A stretch of 57,154 bases of DNA, the filler included, from Basidioascus undulatus (lineage: Eukaryota): assembly GCA_000826855.1 (NCBI GenBank). It is 5 parts of 5 records of this genome, joined end to end, with 100 filler letters (N's around TTAATTAATTAA, not from the genome) between each part and the next. Parts side by side here need not be neighbours in the genome. Positions count along the whole stretch, not along the records: positions 22,910 to 34,261 come from JTLS01001018.1; 4 more parts are not named here. One strand, written 5' to 3'. Positions within the stretch are counted from its first letter, which is position 1. The number at the start of each line of letters is the position of its first letter. The notes beneath the pieces were generated by a model. The model searched no databases. It was not told the origin of the DNA and saw only the letters and a list, made by a program, of their open reading frames with translations. Positions 11,357-57,111 of this stretch are shown in pieces. The translations under genes and the position numbers were made by a program.

Positions 11357-11456
11357 NNNNNNNNNNNNNNNNNNNNNNNNNNNNNNNNNNNNNNNNNNNN
11401 TTAATTAATTAANNNNNNNNNNNNNNNNNNNNNNNNNNNNNNNNNNNNNNNNNNNN
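11357..11456. other. Artificial contig spacer
   Basis: N44-TTAATTAATTAA-N44 linker with stops in all six frames. Confidence 0.99.
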
Positions 11457-22809: not shown

Positions 22810-22909
22810 NNNNNNNNNNNNNNNNNNNNNNNNNNNNNNNNNNNNNNNNNNNNTTAATTAATTAANNNNNNNNNNNNNNNNNNNNNNNNNNNNNNNNNNN
22901 NNNNNNNNN
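22810..22909. other. Artificial contig spacer
   Basis: N44-TTAATTAATTAA-N44. Confidence 0.99.
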
Positions 22910-23285
22910 GTGCCACACTTACAGTTCCAGGCATTGATGAGGGAGGTAACGCTAAGCTTCATTGCAATGAACGTTTGGTGCGTCCCCTTTTCGGTTCTCT
23001 GGTAAGAAAGTGAGGGTGCGAGTGCTGAATGGTTGCAATGGTTGCTGCGGATGCACACAGCCATATCCCCACGCGCAAGATTCTTTCGCATAACGCGCGC
23101 AAGACGCTCTTCCGCCCGACGAACTTAAAGGAGACGATGGCTGCGTGGGAGCGCGGCGAGGGCGCGGGGCTGAAGCTGAAAGGTTCGTCGTTGTTCTCCC
23201 CCTTTCAACCCCCCAGGTTTCCAAGTTTGTGCAGGAAGAGCTAGCATGCTGATAGCTGTAATCTCATAAAGAGCTCTACCTCAAC

Positions 23286-23561
23286 ATGCGCTGGACCTTC
23301 GTCCTCGCCTTCCTCGCGCTGTACGTTCCCCTTCCCCTTCCCCTTCCCTCTGTCCCCACCTTCCCCCGCTTCCTCCCCTTTCTCCATCCACTCACCGTCG
23401 CACCCGCCCAAAGCGTCTACGCCCTCGGCATCCAAGCCGGCCTGATCGACAACATCCTCCCCGTCCTGATCGCCAAGCTTGGGCGCGGCGGGCTCGAGTC
23501 GGCGCTCGTCCAGGCGCCGGCGCACAACGTGCCTTTGCCGAATGGGCCGGCGGTGCCGTAG
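23286..23561 (+). CDS. Small secreted peptide (~60 aa, one intron)
   Basis: Removing the GTACGT...CCCAAAG intron gives MRWTFVLAFLALVYALGIQAGLIDNILPVLIAKLGRGGLESALVQAPAHNVPLPNGPAVP*. It has high GC3 and a signal-peptide-like N-terminus. Confidence 0.65.
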   Translation: MRWTFVLAFLALYVPLPLPLPSVPTFPRFLPFLHPLTVAPAQSVYALGIQAGLIDNILPVLIAKLGRGGLESALVQAPAHNVPLPNGPAVP

Positions 23562-24817
23562 TTGTAGTCGGTGGGCGATTTCAGGCTGGAGGGGGAGGTG
23601 GGGATGGTAATATTGATAATGATAGTGCTTGCTTGTGAGGCTTGCCGAGGCAGCGTAATCTTGCGTCGAGCCGCTTCTTCGCTATGCCTCTCTGCTAACG
23701 GAATACATCTTCAATTCCTCTAAAGAGAGACTAGAAGCGTTAAGGCCAAAACATGCATATGACATCTACTGAACGTTTCCGACAGACATGTTCCTCCCAC
23801 GAGAAGATCTGGGAATCCGAAACTTCCGCAACGCTGCCTTCAGCACCTCCGGATACCCCGGACCGTTCTGTGCCATATTTCAAGCTCCACCGAGCCCCTC
23901 AAGGACCCCTCGCCACCAATAATAATCTATAGCAAGCATAATAATCATAGCCATGTCGGAAACAGCCTCGACCTCGACCCGCTCAATGCAAAACGACATT
24001 CGCAGCAGAGCGCAGCGTGCGCCGTACCGGGACAGCGCACTGTCACCACGGTGGTCGGCTCGTGTGGTACGCAGCCTTTATTCTTCTCAAATTACTTCTC
24101 AAAAGCACTTGAAGCTCAGTGAGCCACCGATGGTCCTCAGGTATTCGTCAACGACGAGACAGGCGAGATCGCCGTTTCGCCGCCGCCCGCACCGCCCAAC
24201 CCGAGCGATCGCGACGAGGAGCGCGCACAGGCGGAGGCGCAGGCGCAGGCGAGGGAGCGCGAGGCGCGGGCTGCGGCAAGGAGGGCGGAGATCTCTGCTC
24301 GGTTGAGCAAGGTGCTGAGGGGGTCGGGGATGTTGCATCTTTAGGCAGTGCGAGGGAGGGGGTGGGCGGCTAAGGAGAGGCTGCCGTGGGTGCGAGTTGG
24401 GCGCAACTGAGACCTGATTTTTTACGGCACGCTGTTTGGGAGCTGCCTTGAGCGACACACACCCATGTCTGCGGATAACGCTGCGTCTAGTCGCAGCGGC
24501 CGGAAAGCCCATGCACAGACACGAACGCGGAGGCTAGCGCCAGGGTCTCGAGACTGAGTTCGTTTGTTGTCGATCGATGCTGGCACGAAAGATGGGGGTG
24601 GGTGTGTGGGTGTTGCGAAGCAAGCGCAGCGCGAAGGCATACTAAGTATATAGAGGGAAGGCAAAGAAAGTGAGGATGGAAAGAGCGCAGGATAGACCGG
24701 AATTTGCCCGAATGGTGTGAGGGGAGGGAAAGCGAAGCGCCCGAAGATAGGGGAGATACGCGTGGGGGATAGGAGAGGGCGGAGGGGTAGGGTAGGGGAG
24801 GTGAGGGGCAGATGGGA

Positions 24818-25761
24818 TTAGAGGGAGTCAAGCTGCTGCGAGAGCTCTTCGAGCTCGCGCTTGGAGGTTGCGAGCTTGTCTTGCGCCTCCTGTTGGCATG
24901 AGTTGTGCGTGATGAGCAGGGGCAAGAGAGAGAGAGAGGAAGGTCGAGGGGCGAAGAAGGAAGGATAGGTGGGAGGGAGGCGGGGGATGGGGAATGGGGG
25001 AGATGAGGGAAGGGCGGGATCGAGAGAGCACGGAAGCACGGACCTCGTACTTCTTCTCCCACGCATCGCGCTCCTGCTCCACGCGCTGGACCTGGCGCTC
25101 AAAGTGCTCAGCCTTGATATCGACCTGGCGCAGCCTGGCGAGGGGCAGGGGAGGTGATTAGACGCGTCAGTCACTCGGAAAGTCCAGGCGACGCGACTGG
25201 GTGTCGGGAGTCCCTAGCGCCCCCGTGATGGGGAACCATGGAAGACAGGGGAACGCACTTCTCCGTCGTCTCCTTCAAGTTCTTCTCCGCGTTGTCCAGC
25301 TCGTCCTCCAGCAGGGCAATCTTGCGCGTGAGGCTCTCGGCGGTGGAGCGGTGCGTCTCCTCGTCGTCCTTGAAACCCTTGGCCTCGGCGATGCGCGACT
25401 CGAGCTTCTCCACGTCCTGCTCGAGCAGGCCGTTCTTGTGCAGCAGCGACGCAATCTCCTGCTCCTTCTGCAGGAGCTCCTGCTCATACGTCTTGTTCTT
25501 GGCCTCGGCCGCCTCGGCGCGGTCGACCGCCGCGTCTGCCTCGGCGCGCAGAGAGTTGAGCTTCTGTTGGAGGGGAAGATGGGGGTTGTGAGAGGTCGGG
25601 AGACCTTAGGAATGGGAGATGGAGAGAGGGGGCCAGATCGGGGAGGGGAAAGGCGGACGGACCTCCTTGATCTTGTCCTGTACAAGAGGCGTCGGGAGGA
25701 GAGGGGTCCAGTCAGCCGGGCGTTGAGCCTACGACTCTGAATATATTATGGTGCGCACCAT
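24818..25761 (-). CDS. cdc8: Tropomyosin
   Basis: M|DKIKE|KLNSLRAEADAAVDRAEAAEAKNK...LTRKIALLEDELDNAEKNLKETTEK|LRQVDIKAEHFERQVQRVEQERDAWEKKYE|EAQDKLATSKRELEELSQQLDSL*, matching the fungal tropomyosin pattern. Confidence 0.97.
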
Positions 25762-27473
25762 GGCTAACGGGGAGATATGTGGGGAAGGAGCGATGTGGTG
25801 TTTGTGGCGGGTGGACAGAGAGAAGGGTGAGAGTGCAAGCGGTGCTCGTGCGGATGGGCTCGATCCAAGGTGTGCCAACGCCAGCACGTCCCTGCGACGC
25901 GGCGCGCGCTCGCCGGGCAACTCGAGGGTGAACCGCGGAACGTCCGCTGCGGAGCGAAAAGACAAAACTCGCCTCTCCATCTCCCTCCATCTCCCAGTCT
26001 TCTTCCATTTCCGTCAATCCCCATCGCCTCTCCTTTTCATGTCTTCTCGACCTCGGTTTCCCATCACTAGATCATGCCATGTCATTTCACCCGTTCACAT
26101 GCATCCATGCACACATCCACATCCGTCTGCATTCGTGAGCTCGCCATCTCCCACTTTCTTCCCTTCTTCCCTTCTTTCCACCCCCGCAAACATCCACCGC
26201 GACTTTTATCTGTCCCCAACGGGGTCCACCCACCCGTCGGGAACTAAACTAGGTCGCAAGAGCATCCCCTACGCCTCTTGCAGATCGCTCCCGCCTTTCT
26301 TTACCCCGTGGCGGACGCGTTTTGAAGAGGGGCGACATCTCATTCATTTGCAGCTCCGGTGGTTGAGGAGGGCGCGGTTGGGGCGGAACGGTGGAAGGGG
26401 TTGGGGAAGTAGGACGTGCGACGTATCGGGTACCTCGCTGCGTAGTGACCATACACCTGCTCTTCCTCGAACACCTCTCATATGCCGCATGCACGCCCAG
26501 AGTTCATCCATCCGCCCATCTCATTTTGACGATGTCTACCACGGTCTTCGCACGGCTTTAGAACTACCAAAGTATTCGTGTCCCGAATACCGGATCTGTG
26601 ACGCGCGATCAGAGGCTTGCACACCTCTGCATACATTCATGACATTTTGTATTCCCCTCTAAGACTTCTTGTATGCTCTGTACTCGAAGCTGCTCGAACA
26701 GAACGTCCGATGCTTGCTTGCCATTCAGCGTGCCGCCCACAAGTCTTTCCTGCCCTGCGCCTGCTCACTCCGGTTTGGCATGTTTTCAGCCCCCACTTAG
26801 ACACGGGGAATTTTGCTCCTGGGCAGTATACGTGCCGGCGGGTAGCTTTGAATGGGTCCTGGCTGAGAGTGAGACCGTCACAGTGGAGCTGGGCAGCGCA
26901 CCAGAGGTACCAAAGGAGGGCCGGACACAGGTGTTCCTTCCACTTTGTTGTCTCAAAAGGACATCCTGTATGAGGGACCGCATAGGGTGCACAGCAACAT
27001 GCATGTCCGCAGTTCCGGTAATACAGCATGGCACTTGAGCACAGCTGGTGCTATCGCTTCTCAGTAATTCAACATAAGGACAGATCTGGACCATCAGCAT
27101 GAGTTAAAGGAAAATCTACTGTGATGAAAATTGAATAAGTCAGCCAGTACCCTGGGAGGATGAGGTCTGCCTAGTGAGAAGTGGTGCACTAAGCACCCAA
27201 GCTGGTACGGCAGGCGCAGATAAACTGTTCAAATGGTTGTGGGTAGTTGGCCCCAAGGTTGCAATACATGTAAATATAGATGGATAAAGAGAAGTTGTAA
27301 ATTCAGGGCCTCATAGTACACTGAGGTAGTATGCACAGGGTTCCGAGGTGGCCGCCTGCGAATGGCATGAACCAGACAGAAGATGCAAGTGGAATAAACT
27401 TGCACCAGTTACCAGAGGTGCCCGGAGTCAGCTGTTTGCTCGCATCCACCATTTTTGAGGGAAGGACACACTC

Positions 27474-27549
27474 TCGGGATTGCAGGTTCGATTCCTGCAT
27501 CAGTCAAGGCCGGCTGGCTCAATGGTAGAGTATCTGACTACAACTTTTT
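27474..27549 (+). other. Permuted tRNA-like sequence (3' half upstream of 5' half), probably from tRNA-Arg(ACG), degenerate
   Basis: T-arm GCAGG-TTCGATT-CCTGC (27482-27498), then acceptor 3' strand ATCAGTC and A (27499-27506), one extra A, then the 5' half GGCCGGC-TG-GCTC-AATGGTA-GAGT-A-TCTGA-CT-ACA-A (27508-27543) followed by CTTTTT. Confidence 0.75.
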
Positions 27550-28630
27550 GCCCACCTGTTTGCCACATAATACTAGCTTTGTGTTGTTTATAAAGCCTCC
27601 TTTTCAGTTGTTGAACTGGCTTTCAGCTTTGGCCAGGCTGTGGCAGAATTGGCAGTCAGACAGCTTTAGCCTGATCATGTCAATGTGACCATCGCTGCTT
27701 GGAGCTAATTGCATGGCTTAAAATGCATCCTCTTCCCAGGCCTTGTCTATGCCTTTATCTAGGCCTGTGTGCATGTTGAGTCTGAACCAAAGCTTTTCTG
27801 CTATCCTGATCAAAACAGCTAGCCTACTCTATAGACAGGGGTGAGTTATACTAAAGTTACCCAAAGTACAAACAGCCACAGTCAAGCACTGTGCACAAGT
27901 TGCTCCAGCCTCAAGCTGTGCCCATCCTACATGTAAGACTGTTGTTGCAGTGCCTTACAGCCATGTTCTGAAAAGAGTGCTGGGCACTTTGACTATGTCC
28001 AGTTGCATGAGTGGCCCAGAGGGAGAACAATTGTGTCACAGGCAACCATATGTCTGCAGAAAGTCCCCTTGCAGGTCTGTTTTACCTGTATGTTCTGGAA
28101 CTGTTGACACATAAGCTGATCATGTGAGAAATGAAAGCCTACACACCTCACATGGGTATACCAAGTCAGTTGCCTACACGTGATGTTTAACAGTGGCCAC
28201 CCTGATTCAAATTTCTGGCATTGATTCTACTACCTAGAAGGTCATCATGGCTGCACTCTGGGCTGTGCATGTTCAAAACTGAAGACTCACTGAGAAATAG
28301 CATAGAAGCAAGGTCCCAATAGGCAGGCAACAGGACATCTCAGTCACTGTGCAACCACTCCCAACTTGAAGCACACTACATTGTGTGGGGTTTTTCAACT
28401 TTAACCAACTGAAGCCAACACTCTCTTGGCACCTGCTCAGCTTGTAGACACCCAAACAATTGATTCTTCAGTGCCTTGACTCTGTTCCATCCTGGAGGAT
28501 CCAAGCCACCCTCTGTGGCTGTGACTCTACTCTGAGCATCTCACACAGTTGCACCTTTCTTTAAGCCATGAATGAGCATGGGCATGTGTTGCAAGGGTAA
28601 ATATTATGACTGTAAACATTCAGTCATAAT
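27550..28630. mobile_element. CpG-depleted, TpG/CpA-rich block; probable methylation/RIP-decayed repeat relic
   Basis: Only about two CG dinucleotides seen by eye in ~1.1 kb, in an otherwise CG-rich genome. There are no long ORFs, and the element family is not identifiable. Confidence 0.5.
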
Positions 28631-28726
28631 ATTTGCATCGTGCTGGCTTACTAGCTCATCTTGCATGAGCTGTCCGTTGGTCTGCCTCTTGCTGAGCCAA
28701 AATGAGGTTCCACAAGCAAAAGAGAC

Positions 28727-28808
28727 TGCGTCGTCCGGGAATCGAACCCGGTTCTCCGCCTGTCTGGAAGATGGGAAAGCGAAATCATAACCATTAGACC
28801 AACGACGC
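28727..28808 (-). tRNA. tRNA-Gly(CCC) with a ~10-nt intron at 37/38
   Basis: GCGTCGT-TG-GTCT-AATGGTTA-TGAT-T-TCGCT-TT-CCC-A-[TCTTCCAGAC]-A-GGCGG-AGAA-CCGGG-TTCGATT-CCCGG-ACGACGC-A, with a perfect acceptor stem and T stem and TTTT downstream. Confidence 0.92.
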
Positions 28809-31046
28809 CTTATTTTTGCATTGTAGGGGACTGAAGTACAGTGAGAGGCCGGCAAAGCACCCTGACCTCAACTGGTCCCTTTTGTGAATAACAAGCAGGG
28901 CACTGAATATTACTCCGGCTATTAAACTGAATAATATATAAGTACATTCTGTCCAACTGTGGCTGGGAATGCAGAATCAACGGGCAGTCCGGGAGGGGGT
29001 CGAAACGGAGGCTGCGCACCCTGACCTTGAACCTGAATGGTGACACTCAACTCCTCACCGACGCATTAGCCGGGTGAAATTAGGTTGTAACTTTCAAAGT
29101 AATCTTTGGATTTCCCACCGCAACACCCAACAGGTGTAGCGAGCGTTTGGAGAGTAGTGTGCGGGTGACACCCCGGCCCCAAGTCCACAAGCCGACACCC
29201 ACAAGTTGGCGAATATAGGTCCTCTTATTCCAGTTAAAATACTGGGGTCAAAATAATTAGAAAATTGGTCCTGGCTTGGTCTGAAACCCTCACAGGCGCG
29301 TAGTATTAGACTGACGCATAAAGCTGTGGAAGGCTTGCTCTGCCCCCTGAAAGCGCAGATGAATGTCCGCAGTGAATGAGGAGAATACACTGGAAAATGA
29401 AGCTGGTGGAATACGACTGCGCCAGAGCAGGCAGTGAAGGTAAGAGCACATGGTTCGAAGGCGACACGTATAGGGGTGCTCCCGAAGGGCGATCAGGATC
29501 TGCGGTGAATGTACTCGAGCTTCTCAGGCCCTTTCTTTAGTCCCTCTGGGGACGGACGTGGTCTGGCCCCTGTGGGGAGCACAGAAGATCCAGGGCTCGA
29601 GAACGTACTCAGCTTTTCGAGTTTTCTGCTGCCGCCTGCTGGATGTTTTGCAGTCGTGTTGCGACATTGGCGGTGCATGGCCCAGAACAGCCTGCCGTCG
29701 TAGTTTGTAGATTTGTAGAATGTTGACCTACTCTTCATAATCTCATCTTTGGTAACTCTCGGTTGCACTGCTCACCAAGGCGCAGTCACAGATGCGACAG
29801 AGGCCGATCGCGGTCACATGACATGCAGACGGGCACGGCGATGTGGCTGTGAGCGACGACGACGCTGCGACTCCAGATTGGATCAGCTTGAAAGTGTATT
29901 GAAAACCCGTCGTATTCTTTGTTGCTGTGATGATGAGGCGTAACGCCTCGTACATCTCGCAAACTAAACTTGCCTTCTGTGATTCACTGCCGACGGTCGT
30001 TGGTCTGTTGTGGTCTGCTCTCTTTTTTTCGTCTTTGCTTTGTCCTTGGCGAGCAGGGCGAACAGCAACCCAGATGCCCTCTGGGCAGGCCGTCTCACCA
30101 AAATATTCATGGCTCGCTGATTCACTGTGACTGTCCACTGTGACTGTCCAGACAAGGTGATGAAGCTGCCAACAGGAGCAGGACGACCACCAAAGCTATA
30201 AGCTATTTCATCAAGACGCCCAAGACACACTGTAACGCTCTTTTTTCCATCCGTCGCTTCGTCCAAACCCGCGCCCAGCGCGCTGTAAGGTTTCATTATG
30301 GATAGCGTTGAGGTTGACTTGAGTTACGTCGCTTCGAGTACCGAGCGGACAAGACCGGACTCCAGAATTTTCTGTTTCGACCACAGAGCATGGCGGCACG
30401 GGTACTTCGACGCATGGACGGAGGAATAGAAGGCACCATGAGCTTGCATGAGCGTTGATTATGATGAGTGCGACGTTGATGCACGGCCCTTTTTGCAGAG
30501 AGCGTTCGGCGGAGCATCCGGATTTCAGGCCTCGGGCCAGCTGAGTATTTTAACCAAGCAAAGATTGCCACCGACATGGTCGATCGTTAAGTGCTGGAGA
30601 CTCCCATACAGCTCTGGATCAGTGGAGCGAAGTACACGTCTGTTGAGGCGGGGCGAATATTACAGTAGCACAGCCAAAGCACTGGGTGGAGTGTTATTAT
30701 TGTTTAAAGGTCGCAATGCACAAAAAATAATGCCAATATGTGGTGATCGAGGGCGAACCCACAAAATCGGCGAAACTGCGCGCGTGCCTGGACGGTGAGG
30801 CCGACTCGACAGGCATGATACCTCTTTCCGTCTTTCCATCTCTCCGTTCGCGTTCCCCATCCCCGCCCTTTCCCCGCCGCTCCCCGCCCGTGTCGCGGCG
30901 CCCCCGACGCTCCCGACGCGTTAAGCACCCCATCCCGACGCCTGCGCTCGCCAACCCGCACGTCCCAAGCCGACCCCAGAGCATCCGCGTGCCCCACCAC
31001 CCGCCCCGCGGGCCTCTCCCTACCACTCGCTTCCTCCCCGGTCGCC

Positions 31047-34000
31047 ATGGCGGACCCTAACGCTGGCGGGCTGCCCAACGGGATGCCTAACCTCTCCAAT
31101 CTCGCGCCGGACGCCCAGCGCGCGGTCCTCGCCCGTCTGTTCCAGCAGCAACAGCAGGCAGCCGCCGCGGCCGCTGGGGGGGCTGCTGCCCAGATGTCTG
31201 CTCAGCAGCGCCAGCAGGTCAGTCCTCCGCTCTTTTCCTACCCGCCTGCGCTCTATAGGACGGGTGTGGACGTCGGGGACGTAGGGGACTTCGGCGTGGC
31301 GTGGCTCGGAGGGCATGCTCGGTGCTTCGCATCGCCACAAAGCGAAGAACGACCTCGTCCGCACTCGGCGTTCCCTCCTCGTTCCACCGGGACGACCGGT
31401 CCCGCCTAACCGAGTGATGCATTATTGACGCCACCTATTATTTTCTTTCCTCCGCAGGCGATGATTTCGCACCTCGCGCGCATGCAACAGCAGCAGCAGC
31501 TTGCACAGCAGCAGGCCGTCGGCGGCAGCGCCGCTCCTCCCCAACACTTCCCCGCCGGCCTCGTCCCTCCTCAGCCGGGCCAGCCGCAGCAGCAGGCACC
31601 GGGTATGATGCCGCAGGGCCAACCTCAGCCGCAACAGCAGCAGCAGCCCGGGTTCGCCGGGATGAATCAGGCGACGCTCCAACAGGTCATTCAGCTGGCG
31701 AAGAACGGCCAGCTCAACCAGCAGCAGATGGACCAGGTGAGAGACTATTGGCATTTTCTGGGTTGAGCGGGGACGGGATCGGAGAGGGCGTGAAGGCACG
31801 GCGTTTTCGGGGGTTTGACATTGCTGACGCGTTCCTGGTTCTCCTCGAATGCAGCTCGGCAAAGTCCTGCACGCCCGCCAGGCGAACGTCCAGCAGGTCC
31901 AGCAGGCGCAGCAGCAGGCCGCCCGTCAGGCACAGGCCGGCGTCGCGCCTCCGGGCGGCCTCCAGCTGCAGCCGGGGCAGCTTCAAGTCGCGCGGACGCT
32001 GCAGCAGAAGATTGCCGCGATCGAGCAGCAGCTCAACAACCCAGCGCTCCCGCCTCAGGAGCGCGACCAGCTACGCAAGAGCTTCGAGGACGCCAAGTCG
32101 ATGCAGAACGTCTTCCTCTCCCAGCTCCGTGCTGGTGTTGCCGGTGCCACTCCACAGTGAGTGCTTTGCTCTGGCGTCTGGGTTGTCGCGGTGGAAGGGG
32201 GACTGACCGCCTTCCTATGCTTGCGTAGACAACACGCCAACGCCTCACCGGCGATGCAGCACGCCTTCCCCCAGCCCGACCCGTCAGCCGCGCTCGGCGC
32301 GTCTCCGCAAGGCGGGCCCGCCGCCCCTCAGCCGGGATGGCCGGGGCAGCCCGGCGCGCCGCACGCGCAAGCGCAAGGGATGCTGCACATGGGCGGACCG
32401 CCGCCGCCAGATCAAGGGCAACACAACAACATGCTCGGGCTCGGCCTGCACGTCCCGCCCGGCCAGCAGTCGCAGATCCCCGGACGGCCGCCCTCGGCGC
32501 AGGCGATGCAGCCGCAGCCACACAAGCCGGCGCCGTCGCCGCAGATGCGCCCGGCGGCACCGCTCGTGCCCGGCTTGCCCGGCGGCGTACCGCAGCTCCA
32601 GCCGGAGAACTTTTTGAAGGCGCTGGTAGACCTTATGAAGAAGCGCGGGACGCCGATCGAGAAACTGCCGGAGGTCGAGGGCAAGGGCATCGACCTGCAC
32701 AAGCTCTACATGTGCGTGATGCAGTACGGCGGTAGTCAAGAGGTGCGTTATTCTACTGCTAGTGCGACGGGTGGGGAGTGGCGAAGCTGAATATGTGTCG
32801 GCTTCGACGGTGCAGGTCAACCGGCACGGCTACTGGGCGATCATCGCCGCACAGATCGGCTTCCCGCCACAGACGGCGCTCCCGAACGAGGTCCCGCGGA
32901 CAAACCCGCAGACGGCGCAGGCGATCTCGAAGGTGTATCTTGAGTACCTTGCGCCGTTCGAGCAGATCTGGATCAAGGCGCTGCAGGATCAGGTCGCGCG
33001 ACGCGCCGCCCAGGCCGCCGCCATCGGGCACGCGCCGCCGCACCAGCGCCCGCCGCAGGGCTTCCCTCCTCAACCTCCCCACGTCCCCCTCCCTCCACCG
33101 CCCCAGGGCGTCGCCCCTCCGCCCGCCGCCGCCGCCGCTGCTGACGCTGCGGCGAACGCCCACACCCCCGGCGTCTCCGCTCCCGTCGCGCCTCAAGGCT
33201 CGAACGACGCGAACATCATGGCGACACTGAGCACCATGACCGACGACCAGCTCCGGAGCTTCGGCCTTCAGCCGGAGCAGATCGCGCAGATCCGCCGCAC
33301 CCAGTCGCAAACGCCTCAACAACCACCTCAACAGCAGCAGCAGCAGCAGCAGCAGCAGTCGTCACGAGCGCAGTCGACCGTGCCAGTCGCGCCGTCCCCG
33401 CAGATGCAGACGCAGCAGCCGCAGCCGACGCCGACGCACGCGAACCTCGGCAACGGCATGCAGCAGCCCTTCGGGCAGGCGCCGCCCGGCGGCACGTTCC
33501 CCGGCGTGCTCGCTGGCGTGCCGATGCCTGGCATGCCGGGCGTGCCGGGAATACCTGGTATGCCTCCCGGGCAGGGCCCGAGGCCGGTCATGCCAACGAA
33601 GGAGAAGCTCGCTCAGGCGATCCAGATCATCAAGAACATGCAGGCGGCGATCAACCAGTCGCGGCGTGAGTGGTCACCCGTTTCGTTGCATGCTAGCGCG
33701 CTCACGCTGATCGTTTCTGTCACAGCCCCGACCAACTCTCAACCGAATCTCTCGGTCCAGGAGCAGGACGCGATCATCCAGCTCTGCCGCGACATGGACC
33801 CCGTCATCACGCCGCTCGAAAACCTCCTCCCCTTCTTCCTCTGTCTCACCGGTCAGCTCGAAGCGACGAAGAAGATCTGCTTCATGGTTGGTCCAGTCTC
33901 ACCGATGCGGTCGCCTGCCTTCCGCTTAGCGGCTGACATCGTGTGTCCCTTCCCCAGACCGTCTGCTACCGCCAGCAGACGGCGATGCTGCCGTCGCGCC

Positions 34001-34261
34001 AGTTCAACTTCACGCACGAGGACCTGTCGAAGATGCGCGTCCAGCTCGCGCGCTGCTACATGTTCGTGCGGAACCAGCTCAAGACCGCCGCGGACCAAGG
34101 CGTCCCGCTCCCGGCGAGCTTGAATGTCTACATGAACCCCGTCGGGCAGGCGGCTCCCACGCCGGACGCAGGGCAGCAGCAGCAACAGCAGCAACAACAG
34201 CAGCAACAACAACTGCAGCAGCAGCAACAGCAACAGCAGCAGCAGCAGGCCGCACAACGCA
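31047..34261 (+). CDS. Gln/Pro-rich ARID (BRIGHT) domain protein, 3'-truncated by the contig end
   Basis: ENFLKALVDLMKKRGTPIEKLPEVEGKGIDLHKLYMCVMQYGGSQE|VNRHGYWAIIAAQIGF...AQAISKVYLEYLAPFEQIW is an ARID signature. The gene has several GT-AG introns and polyQ tracts. Confidence 0.9.
34173..34247 (+). repeat. CAG/CAA trinucleotide repeat (polyglutamine)
   Basis: Run of CAG/CAA codons just before the contig break. A shorter CAG run lies at ~33332-33358. Confidence 0.95.
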
Positions 34262-34361
34262 NNNNNNNNNNNNNNNNNNNNNNNNNNNNNNNNNNNNNNN
34301 NNNNNTTAATTAATTAANNNNNNNNNNNNNNNNNNNNNNNNNNNNNNNNNNNNNNNNNNNN
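34262..34361. other. Artificial contig spacer
   Basis: N44-TTAATTAATTAA-N44. Confidence 0.99.
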
Positions 34362-45708: not shown

Positions 45709-45808
45709 NNNNNNNNNNNNNNNNNNNNNNNNNNNNNNNNNNNNNNNNNNNNTTAATTAATTAANNNNNNNNNNNNNNNNNNNNNNNNNNNNNNNNNNNN
45801 NNNNNNNN
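45709..45808. other. Artificial contig spacer
   Basis: N44-TTAATTAATTAA-N44. Confidence 0.99.
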
Positions 45809-57030: not shown

Positions 57031-57111
57031 CGCCCAGTGCGGGGCTCGAACCCGCAGCCTTGAGATTGACTACGTAAAAGTCTCACGCTCTTCCAATTGA
57101 GCTAACCGGGC
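57031..57111 (-). tRNA. tRNA-Lys(TTT) with an ~8-nt intron at 37/38
   Basis: GCCCGGT-TA-GCTC-AATTGGAA-GAGC-G-TGAGA-CT-TTT-A-[CGTAGTCA]-A-TCTCA-AGGCT-GCGGG-TTCGAGC-CCCGC-ACTGGGC-G; all stems pair. Confidence 0.95.

Follow-up and report, generated by a model that had tools for sequence, protein, structure and literature searches.

Does a short unit in the genome of the basidiomycete Basidioascus undulatus represent a tRNA gene whose two halves stand in reverse order, and if it does, is it a gene, the remnant of a gene, or a copy of some other RNA? The unit lies in a window of 57,154 nucleotides, the whole stretch of DNA that was analysed, and the preliminary description had rightly placed it in a fungus, which a homologue search supports. 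The reading that fits the evidence best, and that we consider on balance probable, is that this basidiomycete has a family of some ten circularly permuted tRNA-Arg(ACG) genes, broken between positions 37 and 38, and that the locus is a dead paralogue among them. A more far-reaching claim, that all tRNA-Arg(ACG) genes of this fungus (about ten) are functional and share both the permutation at 37/38 and the one-base intervening sequence, falls somewhat short of probable, and we put it forward tentatively.

On the plus strand, the unit (27473-27549) reads as a tRNA 3' half (positions 38-73), an extra A, the matching 5' half (positions 1-37), a C and TTTTT. The 3' half (27473..27506) begins with C38 (27473), followed by the 3' strand of the anticodon stem, TCGGG (27474-27478), and a variable loop, ATT, of only 3 nt (27479-27481), both as drawn by ARAGORN for the swapped halves. 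It continues with a T-arm that includes the B box (GCAGG/TTCGATT/CCTGC, 27482-27498), the 3' strand of the acceptor stem, ATCAGTC (27499-27505), and the discriminator A (27506). The one-base intervening sequence, an A at 27507, fills the gap between the discriminator and G1; it is crossed alike by a contig from the locus itself, by a 56-nt contig of high depth and by the contigs of a second locus. The 5' half (27508..27543), again supported by the ARAGORN structure, consists of the 5' strand of the acceptor stem, GGCCGGC (27508-27514), a D-arm with the A box (27517-27531), the 5' strand of the anticodon stem, TCTGA (27533-27537), and part of the anticodon loop, CT-ACA-A (27538-27543), with the anticodon ACA. 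Directly 3' of position 37 stand a trailer C (27544) and a run of five T's (27545-27549) that resembles a Pol III terminator. Both halves are thus on one strand with the 3' half first and 1 nt between them, and the T-stretch is located behind the 5' half, with no such signal in the intervening sequence. This is the layout of the known permuted genes, for which passages of PMC3978253 give intervening sequences of 1-74 nt and a T-stretch behind the 5' half. Neither the sequence nor ARAGORN or Rfam reveals a part corresponding to positions 1-37 on the 5' side of 27473 or to positions 38-73 on the 3' side of 27549, as would be found in an ordinary dimer or an abutting pair of genes.

In its native order, the unit gives no ARAGORN tRNA, no Rfam match at the gathering score and no tRNA match up to E = 10. 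With the halves swapped, ARAGORN draws a cloverleaf for 26 of 38 constructs, 13 of 19 with the sequence as it is and 13 of 19 with the sequence restored, where restoration put G back at 27499, 27502 and 27542 (three reversals of the CpG type). In both sets a call requires a left edge at 27474 or further 5': all 13 called constructs have one, and the six per set that begin at 27475 or later are not called. Eleven of the 13 calls in each set are typed, as Cys(ACA) when the sequence is left as it is and as Arg(ACG) when it is restored; the other two have an undetermined anticodon of 2 or 4 bases. The structure as drawn has a 4-bp D stem, a 5-bp anticodon stem formed with TCGGG, a 3-nt variable loop and a 5-bp T stem. 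The acceptor strands form five of seven pairs as they are and all seven once restored, and the two strands of the anticodon stem, which lie at opposite outer ends of the unit, form five of five. As a control for chance, the same swap was applied to all N-free 71-nt frames on both strands of the window; these 112,806 frames gave nine tRNA calls, every one of them at this locus (four plus-strand frames starting at 27470-27473, and five minus-strand frames at the same place). The permuted layout is not random. Sequence, swapped-half calls and control together confirm the claim in the preliminary description that the 3' half precedes the 5' half, and the ARAGORN results on the re-ordered halves, a check it had called for, bear out its parse into the halves of a single tRNA with a break at 37/38, with Arg(ACG) recovered upon restoration.

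The copy in the window looks dead, and we file it as a pseudogene member of the family. The ACA anticodon, two C-A mismatches in the acceptor stem and the short variable loop lead us to agree with the earlier opinion that it is unlikely to function. The mismatches, C7-A66 and C4-A69, coincide with two CA dinucleotides (27498/99 and 27501/02; altered bases within 27499..27502 on the plus strand) that set the sequence as it is apart from the restored one in ARAGORN, and that we infer to be decayed CpGs with G changed to A on the plus strand. This copy would have lost its function through three such changes at CpG, of which two hit the acceptor stem and one turned ACG into ACA, and its variable region would have been shortened as well. 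CpG decay had been proposed from the start as the cause of the mismatches and the odd anticodon, and this idea gains support from other copies, which differ from the window copy at three places in 27480-27532, and from one contig with G at 27542. The contig of the locus itself and the 56-nt contig both end at 27532, as would be expected if position 27502 differs between copies. By contrast, the additional repair suggested for the D stem, from GAGTA to GAGCG, would require two hits in one CpG, and the contig ends suggest that GAGTA is common to the other copies; the G10-U25 pair would then be native and not a product of decay.

The surroundings of the unit are consistent with this history. By dinucleotide composition, it is located in a CpG-depleted island (26700..29000), the only one in the window, whose core (27512-28638) has just 2 CpG left. 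The island has an excess of TG and CA with TpA not elevated, a pattern that points to methylation-driven decay and not to RIP, which we reject as its cause; the island is probably methylated. We found no transposon domain in the 75 reading frames of at least 40 aa across the island (the six weak matches are all to unrelated families), no repeat of the island sequence within the window, and no TGG/CCA at the would-be primer-binding site. Lacking CCA/TGG, common flanks and element proteins, the unit is not an LTR primer-binding site, and with these results and unrelated flanks it does not resemble a transposon module in general, be it a SINE head or a primer-binding site.

The window copy is one of several. 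We compared it with assembled contigs of two DNA runs, X1 and X2. The 56-nt contig spans the junction and aligns to 27480-27532 with three differences from the window copy. Its depth is 175.4 in X1, where single-copy neighbours have 18.7, 15.8 and 14.2, and 472.7 in X2, where they have 46.7, 40.7 and 42.8; in both runs the junction is thus present at 9-12 times single-copy depth. The contig corresponds exactly to T-arm, junction and D-arm. It begins at 27477 (position 44) instead of position 38, so that the conservation it indicates among copies starts 3' of the anticodon-stem strand. A second locus contains the whole 74-nt unit (27476-27549) without gaps and with 11 differences, in contigs of 4,220 nt (X1) and 18,542 nt (X2) that match 32 and 42 letters on either side of the junction; it may represent another permuted isoacceptor. 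Contigs of both DNA runs cross the junction, which argues against a misassembly, the first refuting outcome named in the preliminary description, with the reservation that the assembly may have been built from X1 and X2, which would then not be independent of it.

The flanks of the further copies, which are known from the contig matches listed (24 of 104 pieces and part of the loose ends), indicate a dispersed family. In each run, seven or more contigs match through the 5' half as far as 27541-27552 and then part into differing flanks; the matches end at 27548 (one), 27549 (five) and 27552 (one) in X1, and at 27541 (one), 27548 (one) and 27549 (five) in X2. The right flanks of the five contigs that end at 27549 agree with one another at only 0.47, which we take to be about chance level. 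What follows the unit on its right is therefore unrelated from copy to copy, although all keep the 5' half with a T-run close by, and the possibility that copies share flanks was not borne out. The unrelated sequence behind the T-run in these contigs also leads us to reject a tandem array of ordinary genes. One X2 contig continues behind 27541 with G, A, three other letters and TTTT, which gives this copy an ACG anticodon and a trailer of its own. Trailers that differ while the T-run is retained are the pattern of a tRNA gene family; copies of one master transcript would have a common trailer. The number of distinct right flanks (at least seven per run plus the window locus) is close to the copy number estimated from depth. 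The summed depth on 27503-27669 is 889 in X1 and 2,734 in X2, far above that of ten copies, so other tRNA-like contigs must align to the 5' half, and some of the right-flank contigs may lack the junction. The 56-nt contig implies that about ten copies are identical over its length and retain CpGs that the window copy has lost, which suggests either selection or very recent spread.

How would an intact copy work? If the algal genes are taken as the model, a single short transcript would be produced by RNA polymerase III, composed of a leader, positions 38-73, the A, positions 1-37, a short trailer and a U-run. The halves would fold as a normal tRNA body with an open anticodon loop and with a small loop capping the acceptor stem. 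The tRNA splicing endonuclease would remove leader and trailer at the canonical 37/38 site, and the fungal ligase, assumed to be Trl1, would seal 37 to 38 to give a circle. RNase P would then cut 5' of G1, the extra A would be trimmed, and CCA would be added. Transcription, this processing route and a decoding function of the permuted copies are all predicted, as is the absence of ordinary Arg(ACG) genes. The window and a second basidiomycete indicate that the machinery and the raw material for a break at 37/38 are present. Three ordinary tRNA genes were called in the window, two of them with an intron, which by our own parse interrupts each at the canonical 37/38; one intron-bearing gene lies close by, at 28727-28808, with a T4 run 5 nt behind its end. 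In Cryptococcus neoformans, another basidiomycete, 132 of 143 tRNA genes contain introns according to a review. Fungi are described there as having a Trl1-type ligase and no ligase of the RtcB type, which counts against the circularisation step.

Two features of the start region count against such a transcript. The 50 nt 5' of the unit contain no TATA-like element, only a T5 run at 27451-27455; the window copy thus has no upstream promoter of the algal kind, an expectation drawn from algal genes that may not bind a fungus using TFIIIC. In the permuted unit the B box stands 5' of the A box, an order that a passage of PMC3978253 calls unsuitable for TFIIIC. We also reject a stable fold of the RNA in native order: from leader to trailer the minimum free energy is -19.8 kcal/mol, a value that 149 of 200 shuffles equal or better (z = 0.69). 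In the fold of the decayed window copy, the leader GAAGG pairs with the U-run beyond an 8-by-6 internal loop, and no clear BHB is formed. A third run, X3, behaves as RNA, since a 70-nt GT..AG intron is skipped and the intergenic island has no cover. One of its contigs, of 45 nt (27499-27543, depth 60.7), spans the junction. So does a cyclic contig of 93 nt, which measures 63 nt round, unlike the expected circle of 74 nt, and neither contig shows position 37 joined to 38. The unique flanks of the window locus have zero X3 cover, which we do not take as evidence on expression of the window copy.

Among known systems, the closest are the type II permuted genes of Ostreococcus, Micromonas and the Bigelowiella nucleomorph, which are broken at 37/38 (Maruyama et al. 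2010, as reported in passages of PMC3978253 and PMC13578239); in green algae generally the break is mostly at this place (PMC3978253). As in these genes, the 3' half comes first, both halves are on one strand, the break is at 37/38, only a short intervening sequence separates the halves, and the 5' half has a T-stretch behind it. The fungal unit differs in its basidiomycete host, in apparently having about ten near-identical copies of one isoacceptor, in an intervening sequence of a single base, and in a fungal Trl1-type ligase without RtcB; the window copy, moreover, is decayed. The genes of C. merolae (2007 and 2013, as reviewed in PMC3978253) follow the same logic, with a downstream T-stretch and a proposed route from a linear permuted precursor via a circular intermediate to cleavage by RNase P and tRNase Z. 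However, in C. merolae 11 of 43 genes are permuted, at several break positions and with intervening sequences of 7-74 nt, a TATA-like element lies upstream, and no TFIIIC subunits that bind A and B boxes are reported as identified there. The fungal unit shows no TATA-like element, and its host presumably uses TFIIIC. The only published 1-nt intervening sequence, according to PMC3978253, is that of the permuted tRNA-Tyr(GTA) of Thermofilum pendens (Chan, Cozen and Lowe 2011); the fungal unit shares this feature, whereas the T. pendens gene is archaeal, is broken at 59/60 and has a genome-encoded CCA (PMC3978253).

An alternative explanation, which we consider unlikely, is that the family is real and does not decode: the units would be dispersed relics, retro-copied from a circularised or dimeric tRNA-Arg transcript when reverse transcription ran round a circle or jumped between templates, and decoding would fall to ordinary Arg(ACG) genes elsewhere. 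The single A at the 73/1 joint looks non-templated, the window copy sits in a CpG-depleted, repeat-like island, the high-depth contig begins at position 44 and not at 38, and the 63-nt cyclic variant in X3 reveals that rearranged derivatives of the same parts exist. Reverse transcription of circular or tandem pre-tRNA is also mentioned in PMC3978253 as a possible origin of permuted genes. However, retro-copies of one RNA should match in their trailers, and those of the window copy and the X2 contig differ while the T-run is kept; at the window copy, no A-tail is visible and no target-site duplication was identified, and the 75 frames of the island encode neither a reverse transcriptase nor another transposon domain. 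The apparent identity of about ten copies over 56 nt, with their CpGs retained, also argues against this explanation. The preliminary description had preferred a captured cDNA, which the retro-copy explanation extends to many copies, or the promoter or primer module of a repeat family. About ten copies of the junction, trailers and T-runs belonging to the individual copies, and unrelated flanks speak against both, as does the absence of transposon domains in the island and of repeats within the window. Its first alternative, a decayed permuted gene, fits best, with the amendment that the locus is a decayed member of a family of permuted genes.

A second possibility, close to the repeat module of the preliminary description and in our view improbable, is that the units are small Pol III genes in their own right, either a 5' tRNA half that uses the T-arm as its B-box promoter or an RNA with a closed acceptor like that of YrlA. 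An A box normally sets the start about 10-20 nt 5' of itself; by this rule transcription would start near G1 and yield a transcript of about 40 nt up to the T-run. In its native order the unit indeed matches YrlA best among the Rfam families (RF02553; 24 bits, E = 0.0063), because the order of T-arm, closed acceptor-like helix and D-arm is the same, and the high-depth contig comprises just these parts. The score is far under the gathering score of 69, however, and we reject the identification; YrlA is bacterial and has no anticodon-arm halves at its outer ends, whereas the fungal unit refolds into a complete cloverleaf of the Arg type. A half-tRNA would need neither the pairing of the acceptor strands (five of seven, or seven of seven restored) nor that of the anticodon-stem strands (five of five), and an ACG anticodon is retained by at least one copy.

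That the locus is a single-copy accident, with ordinary tandem tRNA-Arg genes fused or trimmed by deletion or with an error of assembly, is very improbable. In favour of it, closely abutting tRNA genes are known, and the contig of the locus itself extends only 25 letters past the junction, under the 31-letter rule. Yet that contig runs with 0 differences from a private left flank through the 3' half and over the junction into 25 nt of the 5' half, and no tRNA part flanks the unit on either side. The depth of the junction in two DNA runs and the second full locus also contradict a single-copy relic of tandem genes, an outcome under which the 'system' reading of the preliminary description would have failed.

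In metagenomes, a scan for the junction itself, written with R in place of either decayed base and allowing a linker of 0-6 nt, gave 0 matches. A generic scan (T-loop, 17-23 nt, this D-arm motif) returned 34 loci, all of them unrelated to the fungal unit. ARAGORN finds two complete tRNAs at 28 of the 34, 0-5 nt apart or, in one case, overlapping by 1 nt; 27 of these pairs are for two different amino acids and one consists of two threonine tRNAs with different anticodons, so that none of the 28 is a pair of one isotype with matching halves, which counts against the single-copy accident. By Rfam, two further loci (L002 and L020) have a tRNA with a long insert downstream; another (L033) lies inside a tRNA array. 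Three (L006, L014 and L007) have no ARAGORN tRNA and no Rfam match over the matched stretch; by Rfam, L006 and L014 have ordinary tRNAs some 200 nt further upstream. In the literature searched, judged by title and abstract among the matches listed, we find no nuclear permuted tRNA gene in a fungus. Apart from one archaeon and a nucleomorph, PMC3978253 and PMC13578239 describe permuted tRNA genes only from a few unicellular algae, in agreement with the distribution given in the preliminary description.

If the more far-reaching claim is correct, with all tRNA-Arg(ACG) genes of the fungus permuted and functional, it would, within the literature searched, provide the first permuted tRNA in fungi or in opisthokonts, and the first case of a whole multi-copy isoacceptor family with the permuted layout. 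A permuted family would also account for a tRNA-Arg(ACG) that standard finders would list as missing, since neither ARAGORN nor Rfam makes a call on the unit in its native order. A fungus, perhaps simpler to grow and to work on genetically than the algae, would allow tests of transcription from a reversed order of B box and A box, and of the circularisation of pre-tRNA by Trl1. The dead copy in its CpG-depleted island, next to a CpG-rich working tRNA gene, represents a natural experiment on methylation-driven decay. For the organism, the more far-reaching claim would mean that its main arginine tRNA is made via a circular RNA intermediate, with the Sen endonuclease, Trl1, RNase P and 3' trimming. 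Discussions of permuted tRNA genes often treat them as relics from the early evolution of tRNA. If a basidiomycete has many copies of such a gene, for which the intron-rich tRNA genes typical of basidiomycetes are the likely raw material, this would show that the permuted layout is capable of recent origin and spread, in a lineage whose Pol III and TFIIIC machinery is ordinary and whose ligase is of the Trl1 type.

The permuted unit occupies 27473-27549 on the plus strand, in the third piece (22910-34261) of the window, whose 57,154 bases are composed of five pieces of about 11.35 kb each with N44-TTAATTAATTAA-N44 spacers between them (11357-11456, 22810-22909, 34262-34361 and 45709-45808); distances and neighbourhood across the spacers are therefore meaningless. 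The host is a basidiomycete, since a protein encoded on the third piece matches Pfam Med15_fungi (31.5 bits, cut-off 25.2) and a Grc3/NOL9-type kinase fragment on the fifth piece has its best named relatives in Agaricomycetes and Pucciniomycotina (41-43% identity; homologue search, 83 proteins, E up to 0.001). Among the kinase homologues found there is no close named relative.

The preliminary description of a circularly permuted tRNA-Arg-like sequence is exact as to the sequence, and our parse is borne out by the ARAGORN drawing of the swapped halves. C38 (27473) is followed by the 3' strand of the anticodon stem (TCGGG, 27474-27478), a 3-nt variable loop (ATT, 27479-27481), the T-arm (27482-27498), the acceptor 3' strand (27499-27505), the discriminator A (27506), one extra A (27507), the acceptor 5' strand (27508-27514), the D-arm (27517-27531), the 5' strand of the anticodon stem (27533-27537) and the loop CT-ACA-A (27538-27543); by our parse, a C (27544) and five T's (27545-27549) complete the unit. 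This is the structural layout that defines a type II (37/38) permuted tRNA gene. In its native order the unit yields no ARAGORN call, no Rfam match at gathering and no tRNA match up to E = 10. The halves were swapped by script, and ARAGORN was run on 19 constructs as they stand and on 19 with G restored at 27499, 27502 and 27542. A tRNA was called in 13 of 19 constructs as is (Cys(ACA) in 11) and likewise in 13 of the 19 restored ones, where 11 calls were the Arg(ACG) expected from reversing CpG transitions; the remaining two calls in each set had an undetermined anticodon of 2 or 4 bases. Every tRNA call required a left edge at or before 27474. As a chance control, swapping every N-free frame of both strands (112,806) gave nine tRNA calls, and because all nine fall at the permuted-unit locus, the permuted layout is real and not the product of chance.

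The focal copy is not intact, and we read it as a pseudogene: in the ARAGORN drawing it has, as is, two C-A mismatches in the acceptor stem, an ACA anticodon and a variable loop of only three bases. It is contained in the window's only CpG-depleted island (about 26700-29000; the window has a GC content of 56.8% and a CpG observed/expected ratio of 1.00 overall), with an excess of TG+CA and no rise in TpA. This composition is the mark of methylation-driven CpG decay and speaks against RIP as the cause of the island. None of the island's 75 reading frames of 40 aa or more encodes a transposon protein domain, and, a 36-nt palindrome excepted, nothing in the island recurs at other places in the window. 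The palindrome is imperfect (83% self-complementary) and lies at 28599-28634, within a single-copy, non-coding block of 1.1 kb (27512-28638; 2 CpGs, 46% GC) that separates the permuted unit from an intron-bearing tRNA gene and looks like a methylated relic. That gene (28727-28808, minus strand, about 1.2 kb downstream of the permuted unit and on the opposite strand) keeps nine CpGs and scores 46.9 bits against the Rfam tRNA model, under permissive filters only; the CpG-free block is thus bounded by a decayed tRNA-like unit on one side and a working tRNA gene on the other.

All copy-number evidence comes from Logan contigs of three coded sequencing runs, aligned to 26000-31000 at 80% likeness. 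Runs X1 and X2 are DNA runs of about 35 million letters, each with 0.99 of the stretch's words; they are possibly the assembly's own source and so not independent of it. A contig of the focal locus starts in the unique left flank, passes through the 3' half and across the junction and ends at 27532, with no difference throughout; it extends 25 letters beyond the junction, which is under the 31-letter bridging rule. A 56-nt contig spans the junction over 27480-27532 with three differences from the focal copy, and its depth is 175.4 in X1 (single-copy neighbours 18.7, 15.8 and 14.2) and 472.7 in X2 (46.7, 40.7 and 42.8). These ratios imply that the junction occurs about 9-12 times per genome in the form with three differences. 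A second full locus matches 27476-27549 without gaps and with 11 differences; it is carried by a 4,220-nt contig in X1 and by one of 18,542 nt in X2. In each DNA run, at least seven contigs stay aligned as far as 27541-27552 before passing into unrelated sequence; with the focal locus, the seven distinct right flanks per run come close to the copy number estimated from depth. Five contigs that stop at 27549 agree with one another at only 0.47, which we take as about chance for five sequences. Beyond 27541, one X2 contig reads G, A, three other letters and TTTT, and thus has an ACG anticodon, A37 and a trailer and terminator of its own. Conservation thus stops at position 37, behind which every copy carries a short trailer and a T-run of its own, and the flanks are dissimilar, as expected of a dispersed tRNA gene family. 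A trailer in common would mark copies made from a single master transcript, and flanks in common a longer repeat. As an alternative explanation, a family of non-decoding relics or retro-copies is in our view unlikely.

Further points can be reasoned from the ends of the contigs. The focal-locus contig and the 56-nt contig both end at 27532, as 31-letter words would lead one to expect if their sequences diverge at 27502 but agree from 27503 onward. This supports the presence of G69 in other copies and suggests that GAGTA (27528-27532) is common to them. The D-stem change had been interpreted as a decayed CpG; with GAGTA apparently shared by the copies, judging from the contig ends, the G10-U25 pair is better seen as native. 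The 56-nt contig begins at 27477 (position 44), so the conservation across copies that this high-depth junction contig attests does not extend to positions 38-43. Such a start would follow if position 43 differs between copies, or if the 3' part is also found with something other than the linker behind it.

The third run, X3, is from the same sample as X2 and was automatically guessed to be 'DNA?'. We take it to be RNA-derived, because its coverage is confined to the coding flanks of the region and one contig skips 30594-30663, a 70-nt intron of a minus-strand gene (GT...AG, with a CTGAT branch-like site). A 45-nt contig of X3 crosses the junction over 27499-27543 at a depth of 60.7, which indicates that junction-bearing RNA exists. 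Longer transcripts that read through may account for some of it; an 874-nt contig begins in the 5' half of another copy and continues beyond the T-run of that copy. In a further X3 contig, 93 nt long, the 30 letters at the start recur at the end (27499-27528 in both cases), and ten other letters separate 27528 from 27476. This contig forms a closed 63-step cycle, made up of the 3' half, the linker, roughly 21 nt from the 5' half and the ten other letters; it falls 11 nt below the 74-nt circle expected from a permuted precursor, and is absent from the X1 and X2 contigs listed. The cycle may represent a small circular RNA, a rolling-circle cDNA or a tandem repeat.

Neither default ARAGORN nor a whole-window Rfam search at gathering detected the minus-strand gene at 28727-28808. 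In its intron mode ARAGORN reports Val(TAC) and puts a 12-nt intron at an odd place; our parse gives Gly(CCC), the intron being canonical (37/38) and about 10 nt long. For another gene (57031-57111, minus strand), ARAGORN gives Val(TAC) by default but, once introns are allowed, Glu(TTC) with one of 8 nt; our parse disagrees with both isotypes, giving Lys(TTT) with a canonical 37/38 intron. By tool calls, two of the three ordinary tRNA genes of the window thus contain an intron, which is short and canonical in our parse. Introns are reported in 132 of 143 tRNA genes of Cryptococcus neoformans (PMC4090602), and together these observations suggest that the raw material for permuted genes is at hand.

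Two reviews, of 2014 and 2026 (PMC3978253, PMC13578239), restrict permuted tRNA genes to Cyanidioschyzon, prasinophyte green algae, the Bigelowiella nucleomorph and Thermofilum, and the titles and abstracts of the literature searched gave no fungal case. Among Rfam families, bacterial YrlA matches the native order best (24 bits; gathering score 69); membership was rejected, the match being explained by the common order of T-arm, closed acceptor and D-arm. Of two metagenome scans, the one with the junction pattern had no hit, and the one with a generic pattern gave 34 loci but no relative of the fungal unit: 31 of them belong to clusters of adjacent tRNA genes and three are unclassified at the matched stretch. 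The metagenome loci L006 (1501-1546) and L014 (1301-1346), which have the same sequence there (GC 0.63-0.65), and L007 (487-535, GC 0.33) each show a T-arm followed by a short hairpin and then a D-arm. Their matched stretches have no ARAGORN tRNA call and no Rfam family at gathering, and in L006 and L014 Rfam finds ordinary tRNAs about 200 nt upstream. These loci have a layout like that of YrlA, are probably bacterial and are unrelated to the fungal unit.

By analogy with the algal genes (PMC3978253), a single Pol III transcript would comprise a short leader, positions 38-73, the A, positions 1-37 and a U-run, and its body would adopt a tRNA fold in which the acceptor end is closed and the anticodon loop open. 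The splicing endonuclease would cut at the canonical 37/38 site, a ligase would join 37 to 38 into a circle, and RNase P would open the circle before G1, with the single A trimmed and CCA added. Fungi are described as having the Trl1 ligase and lacking RtcB (PMC4090602). The model has four weak points: the B box precedes the A box, an order called unsuitable for TFIIIC (PMC3978253); we saw no TATA-like element upstream of the focal unit; the leader-trailer fold is unconvincing for the decayed focal copy (z = 0.69); and for an intervening sequence of 1 nt, the sole published case is archaeal (PMC3978253).

We give little weight to the reading that the units have another small-RNA function, and a one-off accident is highly improbable beside a junction that recurs across the DNA runs. 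Taken together, indirect but consistent evidence suggests that a basidiomycete has about ten permuted tRNA-Arg(ACG) units better preserved than the focal copy. We lean, by a modest degree, towards a working permuted gene family of which the focal locus is a pseudogene member, and greater interest attaches to the better-kept permuted units than to the dead focal copy.
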